From: Myxococcota bacterium
GTDB lineage: Bacteria > Myxococcota_A > UBA9160 > UBA6930
Direction of reading: 5' to 3'
Assembly: GCA_965223415.1 (NCBI GenBank)
Contig: OZ245002.1
Coordinates: forward strand, 1,024,001 to 1,088,000
Length of the DNA stretch: 64,000 nucleotides
Positions 48,039 through 64,000 of the stretch are shown piece by piece. A model generated the notes under the pieces. It was not told the DNA's origin. It made no database searches and saw only the letters and a program-made list of their open reading frames with translations. The translations under genes and the position numbers were made by a program. Every line of letters starts with the position of its first letter. The stretch's first letter is position 1.

Positions 48039-48047
48039 GGACTTCCC

Positions 48048-48512: not shown

Positions 48513-48921
48513 CAGCCTCATCGCTGGCATCGCCCATATCGGGGTCCGCGTGCATGACCTCCAGACGGCCCGCGCCTTCTACGAGGGCCTCGGCTTTCGC
48601 TTCGTTGCGGGTCCCGTAGGCCCGGAACCAGCCGCGATTCTCGAGCACCCCTCGGGCACGGTCGTCAACTTCATTCTCAACGCCAACTCCGGTACCTCGA
48701 AGAATGTGCTGATGGACCTCCCGGAGAAACACCCTGGCTACACGCACATCGCGCTCGCCGTTTCGGACCTACGCGCTGTGCAAGCCGAGTTGAGCGACCT
48801 CGGCGTGCGAATCACCGAGGGACCCATGAAACTCGGACCGGGGGTGCGCGCACTCTTCGTCCGCGACCCTGACGGCAACGTGATCGAGTTCAATCAGGCT
48901 CGCCAGCCTGCGGACGGCTAG
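48502..48921 (+). CDS. VOC/glyoxalase-family protein
   Basis: HIGVRVHDL, YTHIALAV, FVRDPDGNVIEF. Confidence 0.9.
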   Translation: MRLDSLIAGIAHIGVRVHDLQTARAFYEGLGFRFVAGPVGPEPAAILEHPSGTVVNFILNANSGTSKNVLMDLPEKHPGYTHIALAVSDLRAVQAELSDLGVRITEGPMKLGPGVRALFVRDPDGNVIEFNQARQPADG

Positions 48922-49289
48922 TGCTTCGCGTCTAGGAGCACACCTCCTGGGGTGCCCCGAAGATCCGCGACGGGCGGATCCGCGACTTCCCGATGATCAA
49001 GCCGGCCGCCGTGAGCACGGTACATGCCGTGCTGGATCGCAACGGTCTCCCGAAGCTACGTAGGCGCCGCCGTCACAAGGCCAAGGGCACGGAGCTCAAG
49101 GCGGCCCTCGGTCTCGGAGCCCTCGATCTGGTGGCTCACGCCGGTTCACGGCGTCTTCCGCCACGAGCGACCGCACCAGGCCCTGGGCGGGGCCGGCGAC
49201 GTCTGTTCACCAAGCCCGCCCTGCCAAACCTGCCGAGGCAGGTGGGGTCTGCGGCGTATCGCGTCCGGATGATCTGAACCGAGCTGGAA

Positions 49290-49520
49290 GTGGGCTTCAC
49301 GCTGCTTTGCCTCGCGGACGGTCTCGACGTATCCGGCTTCGAGAAGGTCGCGCGGAAGCGCGCCGTGCCACTCTCCCTCGTGCAGCTGCGGTGCAGCAAT
49401 GCGCGCAAGGCGTACGAGCGCGATCTGATCCTGGTTCGCCCCGATCAGCACGTCTGCTGGCGAGGCAACGAATCGCCCTGGGATGCAGGTTCGGTTCTGG
49501 ACCGCGTCCGAGGAGCTTGA
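49290..49520 (+). pseudogene. C-terminal fragment of an FAD-dependent aromatic monooxygenase
   Basis: GFTLL...YERDLILVRPDQHVCWRG; the N-terminal FAD domain is absent. Confidence 0.7.
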
Positions 49521-49653
49521 GCAGGAATCCGGCTCGCAGCCGATCCGGCGCGACCCAGCTTCTGTGGCGCGCCGAGCACGGCTCGAACGTGCGACCCCAT
49601 TTCGGCAGGCGGATCCGTGTATCCTGTGCGTGGACACTTGGGGAGATCGATCC

Positions 49654-51258
49654 ATGAGCGACGACGTCGCCGACGTTCTCATCATCGGAGCCGGAGCATC
49701 CGGCGCGGCGGTCGCGTGGAGCCTGGCCGAGACGCGCATGCGCATCGTGTGCCTCGAGCAGGGGGACTGGGTCGACCCGTCGGCCTACCCAACGAACTCC
49801 GCCAACTGGGAGAGTCAGGCGTTCGGCTCCTGGAACATCGACCCGAACGTTCGCGGCCTCGAGACCGACTACCCGATCAACAACGACGACTCCGAATGCG
49901 TCGTCGTGAATTTCAACGGCGTCGGCGGGAGCACCATCCTGTACGGCGCCCACTTCCCGCGGCTCCACCCGTCCGACTTCAAGGTGAGGAGTCTCGACGG
50001 CGTCGCCGACGACTGGCCGATCGACTACGCCACACTCGAGCCCTACTTCGCCGAGAACGATCGCATGATGGGCGTCTCGGGCATCGCGGGCGATCCCATG
50101 TACCCGCCGAAGGATCCTCCGTTGCCGCCGATCGCGATGGGCCTCGTCGGCGAAACGATGGCGCGGGGCTACAACAAGCTCGGCTGGCACTGGTGGCCCT
50201 CGGACAGCGCGATCATCTCCGAGCCCTACGGAGACCGCGATCGATGCCGCTACCTCGGCCCCTGCCTCAGCGGCTGCTCTCAGGGCGGCAAGTCGAGCGC
50301 CGACATCACCTACTGGCCGAAGGCGGTGCAGCGCGGCGTCGATCTGCGCACCCGGTGTCGCGTGCGCGAGATCACCCTCGACGAGCGGGGCTTCGCGGAT
50401 GGCGTCATCTACTACGACGAAGAGGGCAAGGAGTGCCGCCAGCGTGCCGAGATCGTGATCCTGGCGTGCAACGGCGTCGGCACCCCTCGCATCCTGCTGA
50501 ACTCGAAGTCGAGCCGGTTTCCGGATGGTCTCGGGAACCGGAGCGGCTTGGTCGGCAAGAACCTGATGTTCCACGTCTTCGGCTACGTGCAGGGGTTGTT
50601 CGAGGAGCGCCTCGACAGCCACAAGGGACCGATGGCCTGCTGCATCCTGAGCAAGCAGTTCTACGAGACCGACGCCTCGCGCGGCTTTCTTCGCGGGTAC
50701 AACATGCAGATCGTCCGCGGCTCGGGCCCGCTCGGAACGGCCATGCAGGGCTTCGCCACGGGGACCATCCCGTGGGGCAAGGGCCATCACGAGGCCTTCG
50801 CGAAGCATTTCGACCACGTCGCCTCCATCGGCATCGTCGGCGAGGACCTGCCGGAGGAGCACAACCGGGTGACGCTCGACCCCAAGCTTGTCGACTCCCA
50901 CGGCATCCCAGCGCCGAAGATCACGTACAAGTACAGCGAGAACAGCCTGAGGCTCATGCAGCACGGGCTCGAGCGGGGCGAGGAGGTGATGCGCGCCGCC
51001 GGTGCCAAGGACGTCATGAGCACGGGGCCCATGCGACCCACCGGCTGGCACCTGATGGGCACGGCCCGCATGGGCGACGACCCGGAGACCTCCGTCGTGA
51101 ATAGCTGGGGGCGCAGCCACGACGTGAAGAATCTGTTCGTCGTCGACGGCAGCATCTTCGTCACCTCGGGCGGTGTGAACTGCGCGAGCACGATCCAGGC
51201 GTGCGCGCTCTACATCGCCGACTCGATCAAGAAGAACCTCACCAACCTCTTCGACTGA
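49654..51258 (+). CDS. GMC-family oxidoreductase flavoprotein
   Basis: IIGAGASG, GVGGST, WPIDYATLEPY, HLMGTARMG, NLFVVDGS. Confidence 0.93.
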   Translation: MSDDVADVLIIGAGASGAAVAWSLAETRMRIVCLEQGDWVDPSAYPTNSANWESQAFGSWNIDPNVRGLETDYPINNDDSECVVVNFNGVGGSTILYGAHFPRLHPSDFKVRSLDGVADDWPIDYATLEPYFAENDRMMGVSGIAGDPMYPPKDPPLPPIAMGLVGETMARGYNKLGWHWWPSDSAIISEPYGDRDRCRYLGPCLSGCSQGGKSSADITYWPKAVQRGVDLRTRCRVREITLDERGFADGVIYYDEEGKECRQRAEIVILACNGVGTPRILLNSKSSRFPDGLGNRSGLVGKNLMFHVFGYVQGLFEERLDSHKGPMACCILSKQFYETDASRGFLRGYNMQIVRGSGPLGTAMQGFATGTIPWGKGHHEAFAKHFDHVASIGIVGEDLPEEHNRVTLDPKLVDSHGIPAPKITYKYSENSLRLMQHGLERGEEVMRAAGAKDVMSTGPMRPTGWHLMGTARMGDDPETSVVNSWGRSHDVKNLFVVDGSIFVTSGGVNCASTIQACALYIADSIKKNLTNLFD

Positions 51259-51271
51259 AGCCGGAGCCAGC

Positions 51272-51715
51272 GTGTCCAACCCCGTACTGACCGACACCCA
51301 GCGAGTCGCACTCCCTGCGCTGCTCGATACGATCGTCCCCGCGAGCGACGACGGCGAGATGCCGAGCGGGTCCGAAACGGCCTTCGACGCCTATCTCGTC
51401 ACGCAGGGACAGGGCTCCGTCCCCATCCTCCAGGCCGTGCTGGACCAGCTCGGTGCCGGCTTCACGGATCTCTCGCCGGAGGAGCGTCACGCCCGCCTGA
51501 CCGAGCTGCAGAACGAGCAGCTCGCGCTCTTCTCTGGCCTGCTGGCGTGCGTGTACGACTGCTACTACCAGGACGACCGCGTTCGCGAGAGGATCGACAT
51601 GGTTCGCGGCCCGGTGTTCCCACAAGGGAACGAGGTCGCCCAGGCCGACCTGTCGCTGCTCGATCCCGTCATCGAGAACGCGGACGCCTTCCGCTATCGC
51701 GCTCCGACCGGCTGA
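51272..51715 (+). CDS. Gluconate 2-dehydrogenase subunit 3-like protein
   Basis: LDTIVPA..MPS, YYQDDRV, PVFPQG; directly after the GMC gene. Confidence 0.7.
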   Translation: MSNPVLTDTQRVALPALLDTIVPASDDGEMPSGSETAFDAYLVTQGQGSVPILQAVLDQLGAGFTDLSPEERHARLTELQNEQLALFSGLLACVYDCYYQDDRVRERIDMVRGPVFPQGNEVAQADLSLLDPVIENADAFRYRAPTG

Positions 51716-51789
51716 ACGTCGACTCTGCAGGGGGCTGCCATAGCGTGCATTGAGGTGTCGTTTCAACGGCACCGGGCGCGTTCTCAATT

Positions 51790-52062
51790 CACCCGTTCGA
51801 ATCGCCGGTCAGGGACGAGCCAAGCCAACGCGACCACGACATGGACCATGAACGCGAGAACCGGCGCGAGAAACGAGGCCCCGACGCCAAGCACATGGGC
51901 TCCCACAGATGCTGCACCTTTCCTAGACGAAGCTCAACGCGTAGCTGCCAAGAGCCGGCAACACGGGCAGAAGTGCGGCGGGGGTTGGCTCGTGAGGTAC
52001 TTTCAGTTCCAGCACCATGATCGCACCCCATCGCTGAAGGCCTCGAGGCGATTCGTACTCAC
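51790..52062 (-). pseudogene. TMEM175 (DUF1211) K+ channel pseudogene
   Basis: GTG start STNRLEAFSDGV, then deletion/frameshift to IMVLELKVPH...SYALSFV*. Confidence 0.75.
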
Positions 52063-52670
52063 GAGTCCTGGACCTCCGGCAAGCCGCCCCAGGCGCGAAG
52101 GATCGTCCCCGTCATCGTTCCGTTGATCGCCTCGATGTAGAATGCAGCGGTCTGCTCCGCAGTGACGAGGCCCTCTCTCTCTCGTCCGGGCTCAACCACC
52201 GGAGCAGGAGACACGACGTTGAGACGGATACCCCGAGGCAGAAGCGGCGCGGTGTTTGAAACGAAGGTGTCCACAGCGGCATTGAGGGGACCCGTTCCGA
52301 TGCTGTTCGGGTTCGCGTAGTGCGAGAGAAACCCGCTGGTCAGCACGAAGACCCCATCGTCTCGGATTGTTGTCGTTCCCGAACGAACCAGTCGCACTTG
52401 GGCGAGGAACTTTCGCTCGAACCCGTAGCGGAAGTCGTCGTCTTCCAGGGTCTCATACGGGCCGAAGGTGCTGTCCGATCCAGCAGCGGCAACCAAGGCG
52501 TCGAAATCACCCAAGGCCTGGAGCATCTCGGCCACCGACTCGGGGTTGGTGTAGTCGCACCGGATGTCCCCGCTCCTCGAGCCGATTCGCACAACGTCAT
52601 GCCGGCCCGAGAGCTGGTTGTCGACGGCACGTCCGATCTTTCCTGATGCTCCAACGATCGCAATCTTCAC
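52059..52670 (-). CDS. Short-chain dehydrogenase
   Basis: VGASGKIG, GIRLNVVSP. Confidence 0.88.
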   Translation of the reverse strand: MKIAIVGASGKIGRAVDNQLSGRHDVVRIGSRSGDIRCDYTNPESVAEMLQALGDFDALVAAAGSDSTFGPYETLEDDDFRYGFERKFLAQVRLVRSGTTTIRDDGVFVLTSGFLSHYANPNSIGTGPLNAAVDTFVSNTAPLLPRGIRLNVVSPAPVVEPGREREGLVTAEQTAAFYIEAINGTMTGTILRAWGGLPEVQDS

Positions 52671-52766
52671 GGCCTACTCCGCCTCTGTTTCTGGGAACCT
52701 GTTGCCATCGGCTGCGACGACGCGAGTCATTCGGGATCACTCGGCTCGCTGGTCGGCAGCGCGCCT

Positions 52767-53330
52767 CTAGTCGCTGCCAATCTGTCGATTCCAGTCAGCG
52801 TTGTCCCAGAAGAGGTATTCCTCTGCGATGCGACCCTCCTCCCAGCGCGCAATCGTCGCAATCTTGATGCGGACTGGTTTCCCCGTGGGCTCACGAACCG
52901 TCCCGTCGGGAAGCGTGAGGGGCTTGATCCATCTCCCCTCCGAGATGCTGATTCCGGCGGTCCACTCGCCGAATCCAAAGCCGACGATGTGCTCGGAGAC
53001 CTTGAAGTCGAACGTGTCGAAGAGGAACTGAAGCTCTTTGCTGTGAGGCTCGTAGGGTGAGGTCTTCGTCCCGTCAGCGTTGTGGACGATGACGTTGTCC
53101 GCATGAATCTCGGAGATTCGTTTCAGATCTCGGCTGTTGAAGGCCTCGAGGTCGAGCTCGTCGAAGGTTCTGAGATGCGCGGCGGTCTGAGCCCGCTCCG
53201 CGTTGTGGGCGTCGACCTGAGCCTGAAGCGCGGCCACCTTGGCTCTGAGTTCGCTGATCTCGCTATCCGCGGCTGCGGGGCTGCAGGCAAGCGCCAAGAT
53301 CGCGGTCGCAGCGAGGATGGTGGTTCGCAT
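52767..53330 (-). CDS. Secreted SnoaL-like / ester cyclase family protein
   Basis: Signal peptide, coiled segment, PTGKPVRI, IAEEYLFWD. Confidence 0.8.
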   Translation of the reverse strand: MRTTILAATAILALACSPAAADSEISELRAKVAALQAQVDAHNAERAQTAAHLRTFDELDLEAFNSRDLKRISEIHADNVIVHNADGTKTSPYEPHSKELQFLFDTFDFKVSEHIVGFGFGEWTAGISISEGRWIKPLTLPDGTVREPTGKPVRIKIATIARWEEGRIAEEYLFWDNADWNRQIGSD

Positions 53331-53446
53331 GATGGTCTCCCTTTGGTTGTTGGATTCCCCGAGCACGCCGAACAACCTATGATGTGCTCAATATCGGCAC
53401 AATGGGACTATTGTAGTTTCACTATCCCGAATTCTGGAACAATGAG

Positions 53447-54373
53447 ATGGACGTTCTCAAAGGAATGACGGTCTTCGTGGCCGTGGCGAAGCAGGGGAGT
53501 TTTGCGGCAGCCGCTCGCGAGCTGCAGCTATCTCGATCCGCGGTCAGCCGGCTCGTCCTCGACCTCGAGGAGTGGCTCGGGGCACCGCTGTTCAACCGGA
53601 CGACACGCGCCCTGTCCCTAACGGATGCTGGGCGTACGCATCTCGAGCGCTGCGAACTCCTGGTGGCCGAAGCCGATGACATTAGGAAACACGCAACCGA
53701 GCAACGCTCCGAAGCGCAAGGCCCACTCCGAATCACCGCGCCGCTGTTCGTCGCCCGGTATTTCCTGCAAGACTTACTTCCCGCATATCTGAAGATGTTT
53801 CCAAAGGTCGAGCTTGACCTGGTCGCCGTCGACAGAATGGTCGACATCATCGCCGAGGGTTTCGACATCGCGATCCGGGCCGGGGTTGTTCCGGACTCGT
53901 CGCTCATTTCAAGGCGCCTGATGGATGCGCGCCTCCTCCTCGTGGCATCACCGGACTACCTGAAGCGATGGGGAAGACCTGAGTCCCCGACCGACCTCGC
54001 CAACCACAACTGCATCGTCGACACCGTCGCTGGGTACGCCAACCGCTGGCCCGTCGGAGGTGCGAAGTCGACGAAATCCGTGCCCGTTCATGGGAACGTG
54101 AAGGTCAATAGCGGTGAGATCGCGCGGAACCTTGCGCTCGCGGACGTCGGTATCACGCTCCTCCCAGAGTTCATGGTTGCCGCCGAAGTCCGAGAAGGCC
54201 GCTTGGTCTCCTTGCTCGACGATCTCGTTCGATTCGAGGGAGCTCTGTTCGCCCTATATCCTCACCGCCGGAGTCAGTCGCCGAGCGTCCGGACCTTCAT
54301 TGACCACGCGGTGGCCCACGTGACCCAGCTCGAGCGCCGCCGCGGTGAGATCGGAACTAGCGAGTCCACGTAG
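53447..54373 (+). CDS. LysR-family regulator (CrgA-like)
   Basis: GSFAAAARELQLSRSAVS, FNRTTRALSLTDAG, EGFDIAIR. Confidence 0.93.
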   Translation: MDVLKGMTVFVAVAKQGSFAAAARELQLSRSAVSRLVLDLEEWLGAPLFNRTTRALSLTDAGRTHLERCELLVAEADDIRKHATEQRSEAQGPLRITAPLFVARYFLQDLLPAYLKMFPKVELDLVAVDRMVDIIAEGFDIAIRAGVVPDSSLISRRLMDARLLLVASPDYLKRWGRPESPTDLANHNCIVDTVAGYANRWPVGGAKSTKSVPVHGNVKVNSGEIARNLALADVGITLLPEFMVAAEVREGRLVSLLDDLVRFEGALFALYPHRRSQSPSVRTFIDHAVAHVTQLERRRGEIGTSEST

Positions 54374-54570
54374 GGCGCCGATTCGAACCGAGGAGACCAC
54401 TGCACGCTCACTTCGATGCGGGGCGACGTGGTGCCTGTCGAGGGACGTCATCTCTTGCGCGCTAAGAGGACGGCTAGTTTTGCGCACCCCCCTGGGTTGA
54501 TGTTCGGTTCTTCCTTCTTCTCTTCCGCTCTCCGAAGGAGAGCACGGCCGTCAGGCCGCCCTCTGGGGCC

Positions 54571-55371
54571 TCAACGCTGGGCGCTTTGCCCCGCGGCCTG
54601 CTCGAGCTCGCGGAGCCGGTAGCTCCGCCCCGAGATGTTGAGCACCTGGCTGTGGTGGAGGAGGCGATCGAGGATGGCGGTGGCCAGCACCTCGTCGCCC
54701 GCCAGCACCTCGGGCCAGTCGGCGATGCCCTTGTTCGTGGTGATCAGGATCGAGCCCCTCCCATAGCGGTAGGAGACGAGCCGGAAGAAGAGGCTCGCCT
54801 CCTGGCGCGTCATGGGCTCGAAGCCGACCTCGTCGATGACGAGGAGCGCCACGTTCATGTGCTTGCGCCGCCGCAGCCGTTGCGGGCTGATCTCGGCGTC
54901 GCGCTTGAGGGCCGCCAGCAGGTCCTCGAGGCGATGGAAGGCCACGGAGAAGCCGTTCTCCACGGCCCGCACCCCCAGGGCCACCGCCAGGTGGGTCTTG
55001 CCCACTCCCGGCGGACCCTGGATCAGCAGACTCTCCTTGGCCCGGATCCACGCGCAGGTGCCCAGCGTCTCGATCCGGCTCCGCTCCACACTCGGCTGGA
55101 AGGCGAAGTCGAAGTTGCCGAGGGTCTGCCCCGTGGGAAGGCCCGAGAGACGGAGCGAGGTCTTCATCCTCCGCTCCTCGCGGTGCTGCAGCTCGGCCTC
55201 GAGCAGCAGGTCGAGGAAGCGGTGGGGCACGAGGTCGTCCTTGGTCGCTCGGGCCAGCTCCTCGCCGATGTGCTCGGCCGCGTGATGGAGGCCGAGGCGC
55301 ACGAGCCGCTCGCGGGTCGGGTCGAGATCCACCTTGCCGCCCTTCTTGGGCACCGGGTTTCCCGCCGTCAT
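54571..55371 (-). CDS. istB: IS21 IstB ATPase
   Basis: GPPGVGKT, LLVIDEVG, TTNK, ILDRLLHH, GRSYRL. Confidence 0.95.
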   Translation of the reverse strand: MTAGNPVPKKGGKVDLDPTRERLVRLGLHHAAEHIGEELARATKDDLVPHRFLDLLLEAELQHREERRMKTSLRLSGLPTGQTLGNFDFAFQPSVERSRIETLGTCAWIRAKESLLIQGPPGVGKTHLAVALGVRAVENGFSVAFHRLEDLLAALKRDAEISPQRLRRRKHMNVALLVIDEVGFEPMTRQEASLFFRLVSYRYGRGSILITTNKGIADWPEVLAGDEVLATAILDRLLHHSQVLNISGRSYRLRELEQAAGQSAQR

Positions 55372-56654
55372 CGCGCCACCTCCGCCAGATCGGCATAGAG
55401 GTCGATCGGCCGCTGCTCCGGCTCCATCGCCCACAGCTCCTGGAGGCGTCGACCCATGCGCCCGAGCGGTACGGGCGCCTCCACCCCCTCCGTGCTCGGC
55501 CCCTCGTAGTGGCTCGGGTCCAGCAGCAGGCGGCTTCGCGTGTGGCGCGGGTGCGCGGCCACCACCGAGCCCTCGGCCCAGACCTGCACCTGCCGGGCGC
55601 AGCCGCGCACCTCGACGCTCTGCTCGACGAAGCGGAAGGGGACGCTGTAGGTACGCCCCTCGAAGCGCACCGTGGCGTCGCGCCCGACACGTCGCATCAC
55701 GGCCAGGTCGAAGGGCTCGGGAAGCCGCTCGGGCAGGGCCCCGAGATGGGGCTTCTCCGCCTCCCACGCCTGGAAGACCGTCGTGCCCGTCGCCGGGCAC
55801 TGCCGCCGGTGGCTCGAGCGCGCCACCTGGCCGTCCGTCCACGCTTGCAGCGACTCCAGGCTCTCGTGCTCCCGCCGACGCGGATCGAAGCCCCGCCGGT
55901 GCCCCAGGATCCGACGCTCCACCTTCCCCTTCTCCTGCGGCTGGCGGGGACGGGTGGCGTCCACGTGGAAGCGAAGGGCCCCGGCATAGCTCGCGTAAGC
56001 CGGGTTCACCGTCCCCCATGGCCCCGCCCCCTTCGCCACCGCTGTCTTCACGTTGTCGACCCGCAGCACCGCCGGCACCCCGCCCAGCCGCTCGAAGGCC
56101 CGGTTGTGCACGTCCAGCCACGCCAGCGTGTCCGCCCGCTCCGACCACACCACCGCTTCTCGCCGCGAGTGCGAGAGCACCAGGTGGAAGGCATGCAGGT
56201 CCACCTCCTGGCCCCCGATCCGCACGCCCGGAAACTCGCCCCAGTCCACCTGACCCTGCGCCCCGGGCGGTGTCTCCACCCGACGCCGGCTCCGCACCTT
56301 CGGTCTCGGGAACCGGGCCCGCACGTACCGCTGCACGCTCTTGGAGCTCCCCGTGTACCCGTGCTCCTCCACCAGGAACTCGTGAAGCTCCTGCAGGTTC
56401 ACGCCACGGCCTCCCGAGCTCGCCTCCAGCCACTCCGCGATCACCTCGTGGACCGCCTCGGCCAGGAAGGGCTTCCCGCTCCGGCCGTCTCGCGCCCCCT
56501 CCGCCAGCCGCTTCAGCCGGTAGCGCACCGCGCTCTCCCGGATCCCCAGCTGGCGGGCGATCTCCCGGTTCGAGCACCCCCGCTCGTGCAGCACTTCGAT
56601 CGTCATCACTTCCTCCTGCCTCAGTCGCCGCTGCCCCACGCCCCCCTCCCTCAC
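55368..56654 (-). CDS. istA: IS21 IstA transposase (start approximate)
   Basis: ETPPGAQGQVDWG, LGGVP, DNVK, PQEKGKVE, YSVP. Confidence 0.95.
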   Translation of the reverse strand: MREGGVGQRRLRQEEVMTIEVLHERGCSNREIARQLGIRESAVRYRLKRLAEGARDGRSGKPFLAEAVHEVIAEWLEASSGGRGVNLQELHEFLVEEHGYTGSSKSVQRYVRARFPRPKVRSRRRVETPPGAQGQVDWGEFPGVRIGGQEVDLHAFHLVLSHSRREAVVWSERADTLAWLDVHNRAFERLGGVPAVLRVDNVKTAVAKGAGPWGTVNPAYASYAGALRFHVDATRPRQPQEKGKVERRILGHRRGFDPRRREHESLESLQAWTDGQVARSSHRRQCPATGTTVFQAWEAEKPHLGALPERLPEPFDLAVMRRVGRDATVRFEGRTYSVPFRFVEQSVEVRGCARQVQVWAEGSVVAAHPRHTRSRLLLDPSHYEGPSTEGVEAPVPLGRMGRRLQELWAMEPEQRPIDLYADLAEVAR

Positions 56655-56737
56655 GGGGAACGTGCCGCGCAGCGGCTCAACAGGAGGTGCGCAAATCTAC
56701 GTGTCCTCTTAGCCCTCGAATATCACGTCCTGCGACA

Positions 56738-56843
56738 AAAGATGAGCGACGGTCCCATACTCGAGCGAGATGTAGAGCACACCCTCGTCGAGAGACTGCG
56801 GGATCTCGGTCACGAACGCATGCGAGATCTGCTCTACTCGCAC
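56738..56843 (-). pseudogene. DUF6527-family protein N-terminus truncated by IS21
   Basis: GTG at 56843 overlaps the ThiF gene end: MRVEQISHAFVTEIPQSLDEGVLYISLEYGTVAHL, then the IS end; matches the recalled DUF6527 start FVxxIPxxLxxGVLYIS...HLC. Confidence 0.75.
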
Positions 56844-58015
56844 TCCTCGTCCTCGCTGACCAGGAGATTCACGTCGAGCGTATACGTCGTCGAGTGTTCG
56901 CGTTCCAGGTCTCGGTAGAACCCGAGGAGCTTCTTCCAGCGAATCACCGCCATCGCTGCGTTCAGGGCGTTCAGCTCGGCGATCTGGATGTTGCTTCGGT
57001 AGGCGTCATCCTCGACTGCAGCATCCAACGAGACCCGCTTTCGGAAGTGCTCTCGTTTTGCTGGCGTGCTCGTCGTCGTGCGGACGACACCTCCCAGCTG
57101 GCCTTCATCGAGCTCGAGGCCAATGCCGACGTCGACGAAGGCGATTTCCTGGTCCTCGAGGTAGGCCACGATCGGTGCCTTTGCAGCGCCATCGTCGATA
57201 CAGAGGAAGACGAAGTCCACACCTGCCAGCTCACCCACGTTCGACTGATCGAGCGCGATCTCGTGGGGCACTATGCGACGGTGCATGCTCGAGTAGAGGC
57301 GGTGATGGTGCGTCACCTTGGCCGGGCCCTCCCGCAGGGTCTCTAGCGATGGAGCACCTGGCGCTCGGAATGCGTTGTGGGTGAAAAAGCGGTCGGGATC
57401 GAAAATGTGAATCTCCCTAACCGGGGTCTTCGCCGCGAAGTCGAGTACGTACGCCCCGCTCCCGCCGACGCCGACGATGGCGATCCGCTGCCGCTCCAGC
57501 TTGCTCGTCACCTCGACGATCCCAGCCCGGGCGGACGCCGTTTCGGGGTAGCGAAACGGCGACTCCGCGGGGGCCTCGCTCGGACGGAACGTCTTGGGTG
57601 TGGCCGTTCGGTCGAGTGAGGCGGCCGGGCCCGAGAGGATGGTTGCATAGGTATCGAACTTCGCGAAGTAGTCCGGGTACCCGCCCGGAGGCTTGTTGGA
57701 GAAAGAGTGTCTCGCAACCAAGTCGTCGGCGATCGTCGTGCTTGCCCGACCGTGCTCGATCCCGGTGATCGGCTTGCCGGAGGCATGACACGGATGATGC
57801 TCTCCCGTGAACATCATCACGTGCGTGCTCGGTCTACCTGTTCGATCTCCGCTAAGTGTGAGCTCTGAGACGAGGGCGCCGCGTGCGACTGTCCGGTCCC
57901 GGGTCACGTACGGCACGTTGTCGACAACGATGTGGCCCGATCGGATCGAGACCTCATAGCCCTCGTCAACGAGGCGCTGCAGATCAGGGCTAAGACTTAT
58001 CAGTGCGTGTGACAT
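56834..58015 (-). CDS. ThiF/E1-like adenylyltransferase with N-terminal DUF6791-like domain
   Basis: N-domain SPDLQRLVDEGYEV...VPYV...FSNKP..Y.DY..K; C-domain IAIVGVGGSG, FDPD..HNAFRAPG, FVFLCID, DVGIG, NIQIAELNALNA. Confidence 0.88.
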   Translation of the reverse strand: MSHALISLSPDLQRLVDEGYEVSIRSGHIVVDNVPYVTRDRTVARGALVSELTLSGDRTGRPSTHVMMFTGEHHPCHASGKPITGIEHGRASTTIADDLVARHSFSNKPPGGYPDYFAKFDTYATILSGPAASLDRTATPKTFRPSEAPAESPFRYPETASARAGIVEVTSKLERQRIAIVGVGGSGAYVLDFAAKTPVREIHIFDPDRFFTHNAFRAPGAPSLETLREGPAKVTHHHRLYSSMHRRIVPHEIALDQSNVGELAGVDFVFLCIDDGAAKAPIVAYLEDQEIAFVDVGIGLELDEGQLGGVVRTTTSTPAKREHFRKRVSLDAAVEDDAYRSNIQIAELNALNAAMAVIRWKKLLGFYRDLEREHSTTYTLDVNLLVSEDEECE

Positions 58016-58253
58016 TGAAGATCATTCCGTCCTTGACCTTCACAGCCTCGCCCTCCACGAGCGTCCCTTCGCGCTTGCCACCCGGGCCGCGCTTGAAGGT
58101 GACGGTGAAGCAGATGAAGCCGCCCTGGGTCTGCCCCGGGAAGGCGATGTCGACGACCTCGGCGAACGTCAGCTCCTCCTTCTTGGGCAGCTGGTGACGC
58201 CGTCCGTTGACGATGATGGTCACGGTCTTCTCGCAGTCGCTGTGCTTGTTCAT
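57990..58253 (-). CDS. Multiubiquitin-family ubiquitin-like (beta-grasp) protein, single domain
   Basis: VTIIVNGR, LTFAEVVDIAFP, TVTFKRGP, GTLVEGEAVKVKDGMIFNVTRTDKS*; AAAGGAG RBS. Confidence 0.85.
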   Translation of the reverse strand: MNKHSDCEKTVTIIVNGRRHQLPKKEELTFAEVVDIAFPGQTQGGFICFTVTFKRGPGGKREGTLVEGEAVKVKDGMIFNVTRTDKS

Positions 58254-58346
58254 TTCCGGCTCTCCTTTATGATCCTGCGCTCCATGAGCGCGTGCATGCG
58301 TGTCAGCGTGCATGCGGACACTTTAGCGAAGAAAGGACGCGGCCGC

Positions 58347-59075
58347 CTAGAGACGAGCCTGCCCCCGGGGGGAGGCGCATGCCAGGCCCTGGAGTCGGAT
58401 GCTTGCGGCCTGCTTTGACACTGTGAAGCGCCGCGCGACCTCTTCGACCAGCTTCTTGAGCCCCTCCGAATCCGGCTCGAGGGGCAGGGACAAGGTGAGC
58501 CGCTCGGACTCTTGCTCGACCACGGTCAGCATTGTGGGCTTCGGCATCAGCAAGGAGCCGATCGCCTTGTTCGCCTGGACCTCCCGCCAGTCGCTGCCGC
58601 CGCTGTAGCCGACGTCGCGCTTCAGGCACCGCATCAGCTGGGGTGTGTTCGGGCGGTGCCCCGTCTCCGAGCTGTTGAACAAGCCGCGCTGCATCTCATC
58701 GAGCTCGTAGAGAATGCGGTGCAGCAGCGCGTGGCCGATCTCGTGTGCCACGGTCGCGCGCCACCGTCCTTTCGTTCCGCCGGTAGCGTCGTCGGCATCG
58801 AAGGCCCCCGTAAGATCGCGGTTGATCTCGATGCGCGGCGGCTTGCCAGAGCAGAAGTGGGTCACGCCGAGCACGTCGGGATCGAGATCCGCGTGCTGGT
58901 CAAAGGGGAAGCGCAGATGGCGTTCGATCAGCCGCTCCAGATCGACCGTCACGTCGTTGGAGTTGGGGTCCGGCATGAGGCTCGCCTTGTCGAGCTCATC
59001 GACCATGATCTGGTCGATCTCGGAGGGCTCGTACCAGAGCTTCCGCTCCCTGCCGGGGGCTCTGTACTCTCTCAT
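58347..59075 (-). CDS. ImmA/IrrE-family Zn metallopeptidase
   Basis: RWRATVAHEIGHALLH, EVQAN...LLMP, FTVSKQAASIRL. Confidence 0.9.
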   Translation of the reverse strand: MREYRAPGRERKLWYEPSEIDQIMVDELDKASLMPDPNSNDVTVDLERLIERHLRFPFDQHADLDPDVLGVTHFCSGKPPRIEINRDLTGAFDADDATGGTKGRWRATVAHEIGHALLHRILYELDEMQRGLFNSSETGHRPNTPQLMRCLKRDVGYSGGSDWREVQANKAIGSLLMPKPTMLTVVEQESERLTLSLPLEPDSEGLKKLVEEVARRFTVSKQAASIRLQGLACASPRGQARL

Positions 59076-59440
59076 TTCGACTTCTTCTCTCTATCCCTCG
59101 CGAGCTGTTCGACTTTCTTCTCGAGCTTTCCGAGCTCTTCTGGTGACAACTTGCTCTCGGAGACCTTGCGAAACAGAGTTACGGCCTGCGGGACGTTTTC
59201 CACGTACTTCTCGGTTACCTCGTAGACCTTGCCTGCTTGCACCATTAGATCATCGAAATCGAGGCGTAGGTGCTTCGCCAAGGAGCGGAGCAACTCCTCA
59301 GATGGCACGCGGCGATCGTTTTCGATGTCACTTAGGTGTGTCGGAGAGATGCTGAGCAACTTGGCCAGCTCCCGTAGACCGTAGTCGGTCGTCTCGACGC
59401 GCGCGGTGTGTAGGCGAGCGCCTAAACTTGCTTTCGGCAC
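59072..59440 (-). CDS. XRE-family HTH regulator
   Basis: LRELAKLLSISPTHLSDIENDRRVPS; ATGA overlap with the peptidase gene. Confidence 0.9.
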   Translation of the reverse strand: MPKASLGARLHTARVETTDYGLRELAKLLSISPTHLSDIENDRRVPSEELLRSLAKHLRLDFDDLMVQAGKVYEVTEKYVENVPQAVTLFRKVSESKLSPEELGKLEKKVEQLARDREKKSK

Positions 59441-59605
59441 TGGGACCTCTTTCGTTCGCTTGTCAGCGTACAGGTGCTCGCTCAGGGTTGCAACGAACGG
59501 GCCTGGGGGCCCCAGTTCGGCTGGGCAATCTCAGCCGCAACTTCGGCGAGGCCGCCGCGACCACTGGTCTCCCCTGGGGGAATCGAGTGAGTTACGTATC
59601 CTTAC

Positions 59606-60274
59606 GTGGCTTTGGCCTACACCAAGCGAATAGTCTGTTTGGCGAAATCGAAGAAGCTGGGCGCCACTTGCGTCGCGGGGCTTGAGTGGAACGGAACTGC
59701 TCGAGGCGAGTGGATCCGGCCGGTGGGAGACCGGCCTTCCGAGGCGATCGTGGACGAGGAGATGGACTTCGAGGGTGGCGGGCAGGCTTCGCTCCTCGAC
59801 GTCGTCGAGATCGACTTCCTTGAACATCGGCCGCACGCTTGCCAGACCGAGAATCACCTGATCACCGACGATCATTGGTGGAGAAAGGTGGGTGAGCTGA
59901 GCCCGCGGAAGCTACGGCGACTCGCCGACCAGCCGCCAGACCTCTGGGGAACGGACAACCACGGCTATATCCGGGATCGAATTCCAATCGCGGAAGCAGA
60001 CGCTCTACCGTCATCGCTGCTGCTTGTTCGGCTCGAGTCGCCAAGCGTCGAGGTGCGACGATGGCCTGAGCGGACCACTGTGCGCGTGGACTTCGACTAC
60101 AACGGCGTTCACTACAATATGGCGGTGACGGATCGGGCCTTCAAGAAGCGTTTCGTAGCAAAGGGTGCCGGTGACTACCCCCTCGCGACCGAGACGTATG
60201 CCTGTCTCTCATTGGGTGAACCGAACGACGGGTACCGCTTCAAGCTGGCGGCCGCCGTTTTCGAGTTGGACTAA
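59606..60274 (+). CDS. Dual OB-fold domain protein
   Basis: KRIVCLAKSKK...CVAG...WIRPV, LLDVVEI, QTEN, YNMAVTD, CLSLGEP, KLAAAV. Confidence 0.75.
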   Translation: MALAYTKRIVCLAKSKKLGATCVAGLEWNGTARGEWIRPVGDRPSEAIVDEEMDFEGGGQASLLDVVEIDFLEHRPHACQTENHLITDDHWWRKVGELSPRKLRRLADQPPDLWGTDNHGYIRDRIPIAEADALPSSLLLVRLESPSVEVRRWPERTTVRVDFDYNGVHYNMAVTDRAFKKRFVAKGAGDYPLATETYACLSLGEPNDGYRFKLAAAVFELD

Positions 60275-60279
60275 CGGCG

Positions 60280-60906
60280 ATGCCGAGAGATTTGTTCACG
60301 ATTGGCCACTCCTCGCACCCGTTGCCCACCTTCCTAGGGCTTCTGAAGGAACATGGCATTGAGGTGGTGTGTGATGTGCGCTCAAGTCCCTACAGCGGCC
60401 GAAATCCCCAATTCAATCGCGATGCGCTCCAGAAGGACTTGGCAGCACGGTTCGTGAAGTACGTATTTCTTGGCAATGAACTCGGAGCTCGCAGCGAAGA
60501 CCCAAGCTGTTACGTCGATGGTCAGGCTCGCTACGAGCGAATCGCCAAGACGGCGATCTTCCAGTCGGGTCTCGAGAGAGTGCTCAAGGGTGTCGAGTCC
60601 TTCCGAGTCGCACTGATGTGCGCAGAGGCTGATCCGCTCACCTGTCACCGCACGATCTTGGTTTGCCGGGAGTTGAGAAACTCACGCCTCTCGATTGCGC
60701 ATGTTCTCTCCAATGGAAAGCTCGAATCCCACGCAGACGCTGAAGACCGGTTGCTCCGCATGACCAAGCTTGAAAACGGCGACTTGTTCCGCGGGCGTTC
60801 TGAGCTTCTCGACGAGGCCTACGGTGTTCAGGGGAGAAAGATTGCCTATAGGCGTCCTACGGACGGGACGAGAGCCTCTCACCCGCGCTCCGAGGTGCTC
60901 CGGTGA
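60280..60906 (+). CDS. DUF488-family protein
   Basis: FTIGHS, DVRSSPYS, PQFN, ELGAR, LMCAEADPLTCHR. Confidence 0.9.
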   Translation: MPRDLFTIGHSSHPLPTFLGLLKEHGIEVVCDVRSSPYSGRNPQFNRDALQKDLAARFVKYVFLGNELGARSEDPSCYVDGQARYERIAKTAIFQSGLERVLKGVESFRVALMCAEADPLTCHRTILVCRELRNSRLSIAHVLSNGKLESHADAEDRLLRMTKLENGDLFRGRSELLDEAYGVQGRKIAYRRPTDGTRASHPRSEVLR

Positions 60907-61343
60907 AGGTGTTCTCGATCGGGTTCACGAAGACGACGGCAGAGAGGTTCTTCGGGCGGCTCGCCGATGCGGGTGTTCGTAGAGTGATTGACGTCAGGCT
61001 CAACAACAGGTCCCAGCTCGCGGGCTTCGCGAAGCGAGACGACCTCAAGTTCTTTCTGATGGCCTTGGGCGACATCCAGTACGTCCACGAACCGATGCTC
61101 GCTCCTACGCAGGACATCCTGGACGCGCTCAAGAAGCACAAGGGTCAATGGGAAGACTATGAGCGGGCGTTTCTTGCGCTGATGCGTGAGCGGCGGATTG
61201 AAGAGAAGCTAGAAGCGAGTCTATTCGACCGCGCGTGCCTTCTTTGCAGCGAGGACCAGCCGCACCACTGCCATCGCCGGCTCGTTCTTGAATACCTTGC
61301 TGAGGCGTGGCCTGAAGCCGACCTGGAAGTGCTCCACCTCTAG
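60903..61343 (+). CDS. DUF488-family protein (second paralogue)
   Basis: SIGFT, IDVRLNNRSQLAGFAK, LAPT, LLCSEDQPHHCHRRLV; GTGA overlap. Confidence 0.9.
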   Translation: MKVFSIGFTKTTAERFFGRLADAGVRRVIDVRLNNRSQLAGFAKRDDLKFFLMALGDIQYVHEPMLAPTQDILDALKKHKGQWEDYERAFLALMRERRIEEKLEASLFDRACLLCSEDQPHHCHRRLVLEYLAEAWPEADLEVLHL

Positions 61344-61425
61344 GTGCTCTTGTTCGGCACGCCGGCGCGGACCTTCTCTCCGTGCGCCAATCGGGACGCG
61401 GGTCTACCTCTGTTGGACGCATCAA

Positions 61426-61760
61426 GTGGGTGAGCCGAAGCTGCACCACTACGTGCCCCGCTTCTATCTTCGGCGGTTCGCTGATCCCTCGGGACGTCTG
61501 TGGCTATGGGACCGACATGAGGACCGCATCTTCGCCGCTAGTCCAAACAACGTCGCAGCAGAAAGGCACTTCTATCGTCTAACAGAATTGGTTCAGCAAG
61601 GTCTCGACCCGCTCACGATGGAGAAACAGTTCTCCGATCTCGAGGGCGAGGTTGCGCGAATCTCGAATCAGTGGTTGGACTGGCTGCGGCACATGGAGCC
61701 GAGAGAGAAGATCGAGATCCCCTCAGCGAATCGGGAAATCCTCTCGCTGTACATCGCCCT
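61426..61760 (+). pseudogene. DUF4238-family protein truncated by an IS21 end
   Basis: HHYVPRFYLRRF, AERHFY, EKQFSDLE; the frame runs into IS terminal repeats at about 61760. Confidence 0.75.
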
Positions 61761-62604
61761 CGGTGATCACCTCAAAGCCGGCCATATGTGAACGTCTCAA
61801 AGCCGGCCATAGGTGACTGCCCAGGAGGTGTTCTTCTACCGCGCCGCGGGCTCCTTCTGCAAGGCCGTTCCCTTTCGTGTGCGCCAGCTCCGGGGTCCGC
61901 ATTTGAGGATGTGTCCGTGGTGGAGGAGTCGATCGAGCATCGCGGTCACGGCCGCCGTGTCGCCGAGGAGGCGGCCCCAGTCGTCCACGGGCCGGTTCGA
62001 GGTGACGAGGGTGCTGGCGCGCTCGTAGCGGCGCATGATGAGCTCGAGGAGATCCTCGGCGGCCGTGGTGGGGAGCTTTCTCATGCCGAGGTCGTCGAGG
62101 AGGAGCAGCGGCACGCTGGCCATCTCGGTGAGGTAGCTCTTGCGCTCGCCGTCGAGCGTGGCATCGGCGAGCTCTTCGAGCAGCACGTGCACCTCGCGGT
62201 AGGCGGCGCGGTGGCCCTGGTGGATCGCAGCGAGGCCAATGGCCTGGGCCAGGTGGCTCTTGCCGCTGCCCGGCGGGCCAAGAAGGACCGCGTCCTCCGC
62301 GCGCGTGACGAAGCGTCCGGTGGCGAGCTCGAAGACGAGGGCGCGATCGATCTTCGGGTTGAAGGCGAAGTCGAAGCCGTCGAGGGTCTTGTGGGCATCG
62401 CGGAAGCGGGCCTGTTTGATGCGGCGCGCGAGCAGGCGATCCTGGCGCCGCTGGAGCTCGTCCTGGACCAGGGCGGAGAGGAGATCGATCGGGGGCCACT
62501 GGCTCTTCTGGGCCTCGAGCAGACGCATCTCCAGATGCTCGGCCATGCCCGAGAGGCGAAGCTTGCGGAGCGCCGGGTCGAGCTCGGTCATCTTCACGAG
62601 GGGT
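61760..62604 (-). mobile_element. IS21-family element, type C, partial (one end + istB; interrupted by type B copy 2)
   Basis: Tandem ~25-bp terminal repeats GTGATCACCTCAAAGCCGGCCATAT / GTGAACGTCTCAAAGCCGGCCATAG (61763-61812); exact end uncertain. Confidence 0.8.
61836..62591 (-). CDS. istB: IS21 IstB ATPase (third type)
   Basis: GPPGSGKSH, LLLDDLG, TSNR, MLDRLLHH. Confidence 0.93.
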   Translation of the reverse strand: MTELDPALRKLRLSGMAEHLEMRLLEAQKSQWPPIDLLSALVQDELQRRQDRLLARRIKQARFRDAHKTLDGFDFAFNPKIDRALVFELATGRFVTRAEDAVLLGPPGSGKSHLAQAIGLAAIHQGHRAAYREVHVLLEELADATLDGERKSYLTEMASVPLLLLDDLGMRKLPTTAAEDLLELIMRRYERASTLVTSNRPVDDWGRLLGDTAAVTAMLDRLLHHGHILKCGPRSWRTRKGTALQKEPAAR

Positions 62605-62687
62605 TGTCGCAGGACGTGATATTCGAGGGCTAAGAGGACACGTAGATTTGCGCACCTCCTGTTGAGCCGCTGCGCGGCACGTTCCCC

Positions 62688-63974
62688 GTGAGGGAGGGGG
62701 GCGTGGGGCAGCGGCGACTGAGGCAGGAGGAAGTGATGACGATCGAAGTGCTGCACGAGCGGGGGTGCTCGAACCGGGAGATCGCCCGCCAGCTGGGGAT
62801 CCGGGAGAGCGCGGTGCGCTACCGGCTGAAGCGGCTGGCGGAGGGGGCGCGAGACGGCCGGAGCGGGAAGCCCTTCCTGGCCGAGGCGGTCCACGAGGTG
62901 ATCGCGGAGTGGCTGGAGGCGAGCTCGGGAGGCCGTGGCGTGAACCTGCAGGAGCTTCACGAGTTCCTGGTGGAGGAGCACGGGTACACGGGGAGCTCCA
63001 AGAGCGTGCAGCGGTACGTGCGGGCCCGGTTCCCGAGACCGAAGGTGCGGAGCCGGCGTCGGGTGGAGACACCGCCCGGGGCGCAGGGTCAGGTGGACTG
63101 GGGCGAGTTTCCGGGCGTGCGGATCGGGGGCCAGGAGGTGGACCTGCATGCCTTCCACCTGGTGCTCTCGCACTCGCGGCGAGAAGCGGTGGTGTGGTCG
63201 GAGCGGGCGGACACGCTGGCGTGGCTGGACGTGCACAACCGGGCCTTCGAGCGGCTGGGCGGGGTGCCGGCGGTGCTGCGGGTCGACAACGTGAAGACAG
63301 CGGTGGCGAAGGGGGCGGGGCCATGGGGGACGGTGAACCCGGCTTACGCGAGCTATGCCGGGGCCCTTCGCTTCCACGTGGACGCCACCCGTCCCCGCCA
63401 GCCGCAGGAGAAGGGGAAGGTGGAGCGTCGGATCCTGGGGCACCGGCGGGGCTTCGATCCGCGTCGGCGGGAGCACGAGAGCCTGGAGTCGCTGCAAGCG
63501 TGGACGGACGGCCAGGTGGCGCGCTCGAGCCACCGGCGGCAGTGCCCGGCGACGGGCACGACGGTCTTCCAGGCGTGGGAGGCGGAGAAGCCCCATCTCG
63601 GGGCCCTGCCCGAGCGGCTTCCCGAGCCCTTCGACCTGGCCGTGATGCGACGTGTCGGGCGCGACGCCACGGTGCGCTTCGAGGGGCGTACCTACAGCGT
63701 CCCCTTCCGCTTCGTCGAGCAGAGCGTCGAGGTGCGCGGCTGCGCCCGGCAGGTGCAGGTCTGGGCCGAGGGCTCGGTGGTGGCCGCGCACCCGCGCCAC
63801 ACGCGAAGCCGCCTGCTGCTGGACCCGAGCCACTACGAGGGGCCGAGCACGGAGGGGGTGGAGGCGCCCGTACCGCTCGGGCGCATGGGTCGACGCCTCC
63901 AGGAGCTGTGGGCGATGGAGCCGGAGCAGCGGCCGATCGACCTCTATGCCGATCTGGCGGAGGTGGCGCGATGA
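62688..63974 (+). CDS. istA: IS21 IstA transposase
   Basis: 428-aa translation identical to 55368..56654. Confidence 0.95.
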   Translation: MREGGVGQRRLRQEEVMTIEVLHERGCSNREIARQLGIRESAVRYRLKRLAEGARDGRSGKPFLAEAVHEVIAEWLEASSGGRGVNLQELHEFLVEEHGYTGSSKSVQRYVRARFPRPKVRSRRRVETPPGAQGQVDWGEFPGVRIGGQEVDLHAFHLVLSHSRREAVVWSERADTLAWLDVHNRAFERLGGVPAVLRVDNVKTAVAKGAGPWGTVNPAYASYAGALRFHVDATRPRQPQEKGKVERRILGHRRGFDPRRREHESLESLQAWTDGQVARSSHRRQCPATGTTVFQAWEAEKPHLGALPERLPEPFDLAVMRRVGRDATVRFEGRTYSVPFRFVEQSVEVRGCARQVQVWAEGSVVAAHPRHTRSRLLLDPSHYEGPSTEGVEAPVPLGRMGRRLQELWAMEPEQRPIDLYADLAEVAR

Positions 63975-64000
63975 CGGCGGGAAACCCGGTGCCCAAGAAG
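63971..64000 (+). CDS. istB: IS21 IstB, first codons only
   Basis: ATG ACG GCG GGA AAC CCG GTG CCC AAG AAG = start of the copy 1 IstB. Confidence 0.9.
   Translation, partial: MTAGNPVPKK

Follow-up and report, generated by a model that had tools for sequence, protein, structure and literature searches.

Type II Bub systems (formerly 6e.2) consist of BubA, a ubiquitin-like protein (Ubl), BubBD, an E2-E1 fusion, and BubE, a DUF6527 serine protease. CapH and CapP adjoin 168 of 544 Bub operons, and the portion of the source drawn on here describes phage protection by Bub as not reported so far (PMC11601596). CapH is a repressor that is cut at F82|R83 by CapP, which is itself activated by single-stranded DNA (ssDNA); in the part of this second source used here, CapH/CapP pairs are described as lying opposite to the operon they control, and an example '6e.2' operon is listed as CapP-CapH-multiubiquitin-E1-hypothetical (10.1101/2022.04.27.489752). 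The PDC-x systems of PADLOC are unpublished candidates, according to the excerpted text of PMC11811056, and DUF4238 is described, in the excerpt of 10.1101/2021.01.21.427644 considered here, as a single-gene defense, with a P2-hotspot gene active against T7. All of these kinds meet in a 5-kb islet (positions 56738–61760) within a 64,000-nucleotide stretch of contig OZ245002.1 from a Myxococcota bacterium, hereafter called the window.

We consider it probable, at roughly 75%, that this low-GC islet consists of three independent modules placed side by side and clipped by insertion sequences (ISs) of the IS21 family, and that its divergent layout reflects chance placement of the kind typical of defense islands. 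The first module, capH-capP-bubA-bubBD-(bubE stump), would be a Type II Bub conjugation operon switched by DNA damage. The second, DuOB-DUF488-DUF488, would be a self-contained, widely mobile cassette that combines a tandem-OB nucleic-acid binder with two cysteine-bearing Rossmann-like DUF488 enzymes, and the third would be a truncated single-gene DUF4238 defense gene. A first-pass annotation had instead read the locus as one two-armed system under a single damage- or phage-sensing switch. Its recognition of a CapH/CapP-like pair and of a Ubl/E1 arm stands, but the single two-armed system finds no support in gene co-occurrence, homology breakpoints, or operator placement. The islet is ordinary, insertion-damaged, and made of known kinds.

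Distribution of the two arms in genomes and plasmids

All nine genes named earlier are found at their places by open reading frame (ORF) listing and family scans, and their coordinates agree with two operons, each tightly packed, that diverge from a 165-bp gap (59441–59605). A genome scan with a 15-sequence DuOB alignment as the query gave 357 relatives, of which the 80 best, from many phyla and with one genome per species, were retained. By tblastn, DuOB and the first DUF488 gene are present in 80/80 of these loci and the second DUF488 gene in 78/80. The two misses are L001, which reaches its contig end, and L078, and the hit counted for L009 is a cross-hit at a contig end. The order DuOB-DUF488-DUF488 is kept across the set except in L071, where both DUF488 genes precede DuOB. 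BubBD, BubA, and CapP score 0/80 by tblastn, as do profile hidden Markov models of bubBD, bubE, and bubA. CapH gives two weak, non-adjacent tblastn hits, and a capP-like profile matches four of the 80 loci (L022, L003, L010, and, weakly, L005); L022 was in the training set of this profile, and its peptidase is independently detected by Pfam (2.8e-26).

Plasmids give the same picture. Among 17 plasmid loci fetched, which include eight Bub loci and six DuOB loci, DuOB or DUF488 occurs in 0/8 of the former and Bub in 0/6 of the latter. None of the 40 listed out of 128 plasmid BubBD records is shared with the 22 plasmid DuOB records, and all seven plasmid Type II Bub loci examined have other neighbors and no DuOB. 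The reading of the two arms as one conserved system finds no support in this sample, in which they never co-occur. DNA homology to the nearest cassettes, measured by blastn, extends over 59571–60318 (L001, to near its contig end) and 59613–61342 (L002); these breakpoints fall at the cassette edges, and what is shared is the cassette and nothing more.

The genes that border the cassette elsewhere are varied. The 76 upstream neighbors include 13 AlbA_2/HATPase_c_4 proteins, three DUF1156 methylases, and two resolvases, and the 74 downstream neighbors include five HEPN_Swt1(-DUF499) proteins and three DnaE2-type polymerases. The AlbA_2 (Schlafen-like) plus HATPase_c_4 protein, of ~410 amino acids, is encoded co-directionally and directly upstream (for example, L023:8743–10002 and L064:8725–9972) and may serve a cassette subtype as its fourth component or as its regulator. 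In L005 and L055 the cassette is wedged between an upstream DUF1156 methyltransferase and a downstream HEPN_Swt1-DUF499 gene, as an insert inside another multi-gene system; L076, L008, L026, and L054 are also listed with a DUF1156/HEPN_Swt1-DUF499 context, and DUF1156 ends 4–20 bp before DuOB. A DnaE2-like DNA polymerase III alpha gene lies convergent and directly downstream of the cassette in L031, L042, and L075, which are Acidobacteriota or Verrucomicrobiota metagenome-assembled genomes (MAGs). L092, from an Allochromatium plasmid, has the cassette within a type III CRISPR-Cas neighborhood, with Csx16 and Cas1 upstream and Csm6 downstream.

The Type II Bub operons of plasmids have a company of their own. 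All seven examined (L081–L084 and L095–L097), from Alpha- and Gammaproteobacteria and one cyanobacterium, share a six-gene layout in the order regulator (response regulator or sigma-like), ~190-amino-acid hypothetical protein, ~1130-amino-acid UvrD-like helicase, 250-amino-acid multi-ubiquitin protein, ThiF, and DUF6527. The A. johnsonii locus carries an IS5-like transposase gene between the helicase and multi-ubiquitin genes, and the incomplete gene table of the R. leguminosarum locus has no helicase gene. The helicase trio may be part of that plasmid Bub subtype.

The CapH/CapP switch, its candidate operators, and the Bub operon

The switch is encoded on the minus strand by an XRE helix-turn-helix (HTH) gene followed directly by an HExxH peptidase gene, with the stop of the first overlapping the start of the second by 4 nt. 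The capH-like repressor gene (59072–59440) matches HTH_31 (4.6e-11) and HTH_3 in Pfam and the PADLOC capH profile (1.9e-13) over nearly its full length (profile positions 2–101 of 103). The capP-like gene (58347–59075) encodes an M78/IrrE zinc metallopeptidase (Peptidase_M78, 2.6e-6; PADLOC capP, 5.9e-10) with HEIGH at residue 111, and its PADLOC match covers the peptidase core only (profile positions 63–151 of 242). In an alignment with five other CapH-like proteins, CapH F90-R91 falls in a column conserved as (F/L)R(R/K), where the known CapP cut lies, and is the predicted cleavage site. The family matches, HEIGH, and the conserved F-R support the earlier description of the HTH and peptidase genes as a CapH/CapP-like pair.

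Relatives of the window CapP in nine plasmid records represent four contexts, and one record of each was examined. In all four, the HTH and peptidase genes are co-directional with downstream cargo, namely a Type I Bub operon (Rhizobium phaseoli), a JAB-containing operon, a DUF3892 gene, and phage-plasmid genes. The nearest plasmid relatives precede Ubl-type operons, and no DuOB is present in the four contexts examined.

A candidate capH promoter (59457–59493, minus strand) is formed by a -35 element TTGCAA (59488–59493), a 17-nt spacer, and a -10 element TACGCT (59465–59470). The -10 element is overlapped by the palindrome CGCT-N4-AGCG, here CGCTGACAAGCG (59457–59468), which we designate candidate operator O1 and which lies 17 bp from the capH start and ~137 bp from DuOB. 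The palindrome as such occurs three times in the window, versus 4.2 expected. The core 9-mer ACGCTGACA is present in exactly two copies in the window, both on the minus strand: one at 59461–59469, before capH, and the other at 58301–58309, as the core of a candidate CapH operator O2 in the 93-bp spacer between capP and bubA, beside a CGCT-N5-AGCG palindrome at 58276–58288. Between 59469 and 59700 no copy is present, even with one mismatch allowed.

Related loci repeat this two-site arrangement. L086 and L087 have TTGACA or TTGACG, a 17-nt spacer, and a -10 element before the HTH gene, overlapped by CGCT-N4-AGCG, and the 17-bp distance from O1 to the capH start matches operator placement in both. 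In L085 the promoter is laid out likewise, but the palindrome that overlaps it, though related, is longer and deviates from the motif at one position. Between peptidase and cargo genes the motif is seen again in L085 and L087, and in L086 with one mismatch. CapH is therefore predicted to bind CGCT-N4-AGCG candidate operators before capH and bubA, and since candidate operators are seen only at these two places, we assign the predicted CapH control to the leftward arm. The co-directional cargo in 4/4 plasmid contexts, the shared operators, the conserved F-R, and the gene overlaps together place CapH/CapP with the Bub arm. The earlier idea that one switch co-induces both arms is disfavored by the predicted operators, none of which falls in the DuOB-proximal part of the gap.

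Within the 165-bp divergent region (59441–59605), only the last 35 bp (59571–59605) are homologous to the nearest cassette relative, and Rfam gives no match in the gap. The gap repeats CTGGGG-C-CCCCAG and CGGCTG-N8-CAGCCG were considered as operators and rejected, since inverted repeats of this generic kind also turn up in 38% of shuffles and so do not exceed chance.

The Bub genes follow capP on the same strand. The bubA gene (57990–58253, in an ORF open to 58313) encodes a single beta-grasp Ubl (Multi_ubiq, PF14452, 4.9e-16) whose C-terminus, FNVTRTDKS, resembles those of plasmid BubAs. Its likely start is the ATG at 58253, behind AAGGAG, and it overlaps bubBD by 26 nt, an overlap annotated identically in plasmid homologues. 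The first 20 codons of the longest bubA ORF (58254–58313) are probably non-coding and contain the operator-like 9-mer and the CGCT-N5-AGCG palindrome. The bubBD gene (56834–58015) is an intact ORF of 393 codons for an E2-like DUF6791 domain (residues 10–159, 6.8e-55) fused to an E1 ThiF domain (residues 168–306, 3.6e-10). The protein scores 522 bits against NCBIfam NF004805 (7.2e-157; cut-off 352) and is 51–55% identical to plasmid homologues. It keeps the motifs HSFSNKP (103), NAFRAPG (214), and DAYRSNIQ (337), and its S106, R217, and Y339, conserved in a three-way alignment, lie by residue number within three positions of S106, R219, and Y342 of the published E. coli protein. Type II Bub has a catalytic Ser (with Lys/His) in the E2 part and a Tyr on the E1 crossover loop where Cys would otherwise stand, and these residues are candidates for those roles. 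PHROGs contains nothing for BubBD or BubA. The Multi_ubiq, DUF6791, ThiF, and NF004805 matches identify the Ubl/E1 arm as a bacterial conjugation operon, as proposed.

The last leftward gene is broken. What remains of bubE (56739–56843, minus strand) is a 35-codon stump whose frame opens at GTG 56843 and is cut by an IS at 56738, ahead of both the zinc-finger cysteines and the catalytic Ser/His dyad. The stump matches BubE N-termini in seven plasmid loci (about 1e-8 to 1e-9 by tblastn) and has no Pfam match for a piece this short. The leftward gene list of the first-pass annotation is accordingly right for the HTH, peptidase, Ubl, and ThiF-fusion genes, and the DUF6527 gene it included is an N-terminal fragment. 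The arm belongs to Type II Bub (6e.2) and is probably controlled by CapH/CapP, a pairing known from the literature. With its Ubl and E2-E1 fusion present and its protease gene destroyed, it is an incomplete, disrupted member of the type.

Conservation of the motif suggests that CapH would occupy operators of the CGCT-N4-AGCG type, both at the capH promoter and ahead of bubA. By analogy with the published CapH/CapP, ssDNA would activate CapP, which would cut CapH near F90-R91. BubA and BubBD would then be made, and BubA would be conjugated to targets via the Tyr/Ser oxyester intermediates published for relatives.

The DuOB cassette, the DUF4238 stump, and the insertion sequences

The rightward genes correspond to the three proteins of the PADLOC candidate PDC-M45, in the order A-B-C. 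DuOB, the dual OB-fold protein (59606–60274, plus strand; possible alternative start at TTG 59612), is PDC-M45A (PF22557, 4.1e-59; PADLOC, 3.2e-65). The long DUF488 protein (60280–60906, plus strand) is PDC-M45B (PF04343, 4.2e-24; PADLOC, 4.8e-80), and the short form, or 'active DUF488-N3a' (60903–61343, plus strand), is PDC-M45C (PF04343, 3.3e-25; PF22751, 1.3e-9; PADLOC, 7.3e-69). DuOB is separated from the first DUF488 gene by 5 nt, and the two DUF488 genes overlap by 4 nt. These Pfam and PADLOC matches uphold the earlier naming of the dual-OB, DUF488, and DUF488 genes.

The invariant residues of DuOB include C11, S15, K17, C22, E82, N83, T175, and D176, and its AlphaFold2 model, a tandem OB fold, has a predicted local distance difference test (pLDDT) value of 93.6. 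The best PDB matches of the model are the DNA-binding HIN-200 tandem OB domains, with template modeling (TM) scores of 0.30–0.39; the 11 matches at E up to 1e-3 as a whole have TM 0.27–0.39. Less significant matches include LEF-3, RPA, SSB, and additional telomere-end binders. The short DUF488 protein is highly conserved, with an invariant CLLCSE...CHRRLV. A fold search with its model (pLDDT 89) finds no PDB match at E up to 1e-3, and its faint resemblance to Cys-phosphatase-type folds (TM 0.3–0.45) and to diphthine-synthase-like folds is a lead only. A sequence search of solved structures returns chance-level E-values for the short DUF488 (0.085 and 0.89) and nothing for the DuOB profile. A search of 50,697 phage records gave no DuOB match, PHROGs has nothing for DuOB, and a literature search found no published experimental defense phenotype or anti-phage test of PDC-M45. 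Burroughs and Aravind in 2023 reportedly joined DUF488 to a rhodanese-phosphatase clade and predicted DNA-end processing.

Two sets of relatives vary the theme. Three proteins (P0241–P0243) join DuOB with modules of a RecQ-type helicase (DEAD, Helicase_C, RecQ_Zn_bind, RQC, and HRDC); one of the three also has an FGE-sulfatase domain, and one also has HTH_40. On small Acinetobacter and Citrobacter plasmids (L091, L093, and L094), a variant cassette of DuOB, one short DUF488, and DUF4326 stands beside replication, partition, or mobilization genes. DUF4326 is placed in the rhodanese-phosphatase superfamily in the part of PMC9503650 used here.

The model's likeness to HIN-200, RPA, and telomere-end binders, together with the three RecQ-type fusions, hints that the right arm may bind nucleic acid, and the DUF488 enzymes may act on nucleic-acid ends or nucleotide phosphates. 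With low confidence, we suggest that DuOB could bind a nucleic-acid end or single strand and present it to the DUF488 enzymes.

Beyond the cassette, at a distance of 82 bp, lies the N-terminal third of a DUF4238 gene (about 61426–61763, plus strand; PF14022, 1e-21, profile positions 2–102 of 281), truncated by a second IS21-family element and matching PADLOC DUF4238-Pers weakly (2.1e-4). The first-pass annotation had counted this gene in the right arm; elsewhere DUF4238 stands beside the cassette in 0/80 loci by tblastn and is none of the 74 downstream neighbors by Pfam.

On the left, the islet abuts the istA-proximal end of an IS21-family copy (54436–56738, minus strand) whose ends were located by inverted-terminus match. 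It has terminal inverted repeats and carries istA (55368–56654; rve and Mu-transpos_C_2 in Pfam) followed by istB (54571–55371; IstB_IS21, 1.4e-71), the composition of the family. An inverted copy of the same element occupies the right side (62604–64000, plus strand, continuing past the window end; istA 62688–63974 by Pfam), and over the 1397 nt of this copy inside the window the two are 100% identical, so the insertion or recombination was recent. Between the islet and the right copy stands the remnant of a different IS21-family element (61764–62603, minus strand), with istB only (61836–62591; IstB_IS21, 3.5e-62) and with terminal motifs repeated at 61764–61815; the right IS copy has taken the place of its istA side, with the junction at 62604. 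The IS21 bracket described earlier consists of these two inverted copies, and its description has to be amended by this remnant. No target-site duplication is found across the left copy, and we conclude that the present junctions stem from a recombination or composite event and not from one simple insertion. The inverted IS pair and the missing duplication suggest an inversion or a composite-transposon event, and the missing 3' part of bubE may be located outside the window.

The guanine-cytosine (GC) content is 0.61 in the islet, 0.716 in bases 1–41000, and 0.65 in bases 41001–54435. The islet is thus poorer in GC than its host, as had been noted, with the qualification that the adjoining 13-kb stretch is also low. 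That stretch (41001–54435) carries LysR regulators and oxidoreductases along with a third IS21-like istA (44532–46334), a 600-amino-acid ORF whose product has the C-terminal domain of Mu transposases, and the accessory region thus extends beyond the islet.

Alternative readings and comparison with described systems

One alternative concerns the purpose of the right arm and not its wiring. It may not be anti-phage at all, but a module for DNA-end processing, repair, or establishment by which mobile elements look after their own DNA. The DuOB-DUF488-DUF4326 variant, which neighbors rep, par, and mob genes on small plasmids of enterobacteria and Acinetobacter, speaks for it, as do the RecQ-type helicase fusions of DuOB in three proteins, an error-prone DnaE2-type polymerase neighbor in 3/74 loci, and a literature search that turned up no experimental defense phenotype. 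We nevertheless regard this as possible but unlikely, given the PADLOC listing as a defense candidate, the lack of any DuOB match in the phage records searched, and the company the cassette keeps: it lies between a DUF1156 methylase and HEPN_Swt1-DUF499 in L005 and L055, beside one of the two elsewhere (3/76 upstream and 5/74 downstream), inside a type III CRISPR locus, and beside a signaling system against phages that is based on cyclic oligonucleotides (CBASS).

One qualification to three independent modules comes from the neighborhood of CBASS. In L022 (6459–11762, an Acidobacteriota MAG) and L090 (1184–7833, Agrobacterium plasmid pAt1D1108a), PDC-M45 lies directly behind capH-capP and co-directional with it, and a type III CBASS (cyclase, HORMA/TRIP13) diverges from capH-capP; the gap between capP and DuOB is about 22–25 bp in the former and 427 bp in the latter. 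In two Dyella loci, an HTH-M78 fusion adjoins the cassette. In the window itself, blastn homology with L001 starts at 59571, so the upstream DNA that the cassette brings along amounts to 35 bp at most, and the DuOB promoter must consequently share the remaining ~130 bp with the capH promoter and O1. The -35-like TTGCAA is its own reverse complement, which, together with this shared region, makes regulatory cross-talk physically possible. No DuOB promoter was found, as a sigma-70 consensus scan gave 0 sites in 56600–61900. The operators and the CapH cleavage site that tie the switch to Bub are themselves candidates, and the counts against co-occurrence derive from the best 80 of 357 DuOB relatives, with a single genome for each species, and from 40 of 128 plasmid BubBD records. 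These points weigh against a strict separation of the arms.

There is also an intermediate possibility, in which the modules have independent origins and PDC-M45 tends to settle by CapH/CapP, so that here the cassette is damage-induced through the shared region and the islet has two outputs. L022 and L090 are distant from one another (components 31–61% identical) and yet have CBASS on one side of capH-capP and PDC-M45 on the other, and in L022 the cassette begins right after capP. More generally, 21/76 cassettes start at most 60 bp from a co-directional upstream gene, which indicates that cassettes often ride on a neighbor's transcript, and the window cassette has hardly any upstream DNA of its own. 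Against this, the arrangement is rare (1/80 genome loci, L022, and 1/6 examined plasmid loci, L090), the 427 bp between capP and DuOB in L090 contain no copy of that locus's operator palindrome, the window operator is far closer to capH (17 bp) than to DuOB (~137 bp), and neighboring defense modules are common in islands. We think such wiring rather improbable. The L090 spacer (5563–5988) also contains an unannotated open frame of ~54 codons that looks HTH-like by eye and may regulate the cassette.

A bolder version, which we regard as speculative, casts PDC-M45 as a nucleic-acid-end-sensing or -processing module that repeatedly docks on the ssDNA-sensing CapH/CapP as a second output, the primary one being Bub here and CBASS in L022 and L090; the cassette would be damage-inducible via the shared 165 bp and the palindromic TTGCAA.

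It is about as doubtful that the islet is an inert relic, killed by IS activity and without useful expression. Both bubE and DUF4238 are truncated, the left IS without target-site duplication attests to a rearrangement, and a third IS21-like istA lies nearby (44532–46334), but seven ORFs are full length with conserved motifs, and the 100% identity of the IS copies over 1397 nt makes the event recent. Least credible is a conserved unit whose Bub arm and DuOB/DUF488/DUF4238 arm are induced together by the one CapH/CapP switch: the divergent region is common to both tightly packed arms, and the published opposite-strand geometry, as given in the part of 10.1101/2022.04.27.489752 used here, would fit the DuOB arm, but Bub and DuOB never co-occur in the three sets of loci, DUF4238 is never beside the cassette elsewhere (80 loci, 74 downstream neighbors), homology breaks at the cassette edges, operator copies stand only before capH and bubA, and the closest CapP relatives control co-directional cargo.

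We therefore retain the reading of three independent modules, and its lesson is a guard against over-reading: divergent, tightly packed operons in a defense island need not be one system, and a neighborhood census combined with homology breakpoints separated the two arms quickly. Three leads emerge. The candidate operator CGCT-N4-AGCG and the two-promoter layout may apply to a subfamily of CapH proteins in charge of ubiquitin-like conjugation operons. The natural loss of the BubE protease from a Type II Bub operon may help to ask what BubE does. Lastly, since the DuOB/DUF488 cassette is sometimes found behind capH-capP next to CBASS, DNA damage offers a starting condition for finding its function.

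Compared with described systems, the leftward arm resembles the CapH/CapP-linked 6e.2/Type II Bub operons, as presented in the portions of 10.1101/2022.04.27.489752 and PMC11601596 drawn on here, in its HTH repressor, M78 peptidase, multi-ubiquitin Ubl, DUF6791+ThiF fusion, and DUF6527. Its Bub gene order and bubA/bubBD overlap are the same as in plasmid relatives, and it differs from the CapH/CapP Bub operons described in those portions in that bubE is cut to 35 codons by an IS. The window pair is also co-directional with Bub and not on the opposite strand, unlike the pairs described in that part of 10.1101/2022.04.27.489752, and is opposite only to the DuOB cassette. As in DdrO/IrrE and ImmR/ImmA, in the account excerpted from 10.1101/2022.04.27.489752, an XRE repressor is paired with an M78 metallopeptidase of the kind that cleaves the repressor after DNA damage. 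Unlike those pairs as that account presents them, the window pair would control defense-type cargo on a mobile islet and not a chromosomal repair regulon, a prophage, or an integrative and conjugative element. The DUF4238 stump resembles the single-gene defense of the excerpted 10.1101/2021.01.21.427644 in its N-terminal third (PF14022, 1e-21) and departs from it by ending at profile position 102 of 281, short of full length. The cassette has all three PDC-M45 proteins in the order A-B-C, and nothing in the cassette itself differs from the PADLOC candidate; what sets it apart from PDC-M45 elsewhere is that it diverges from capH and is followed by a DUF4238 stump. Finally, as in L022 and L090, the CapH/CapP pair of the locus is flanked by a defense operon and, on its other side, by the DuOB cassette, but its partner is Bub and not CBASS, and its cassette diverges from capH instead of following capP co-directionally.

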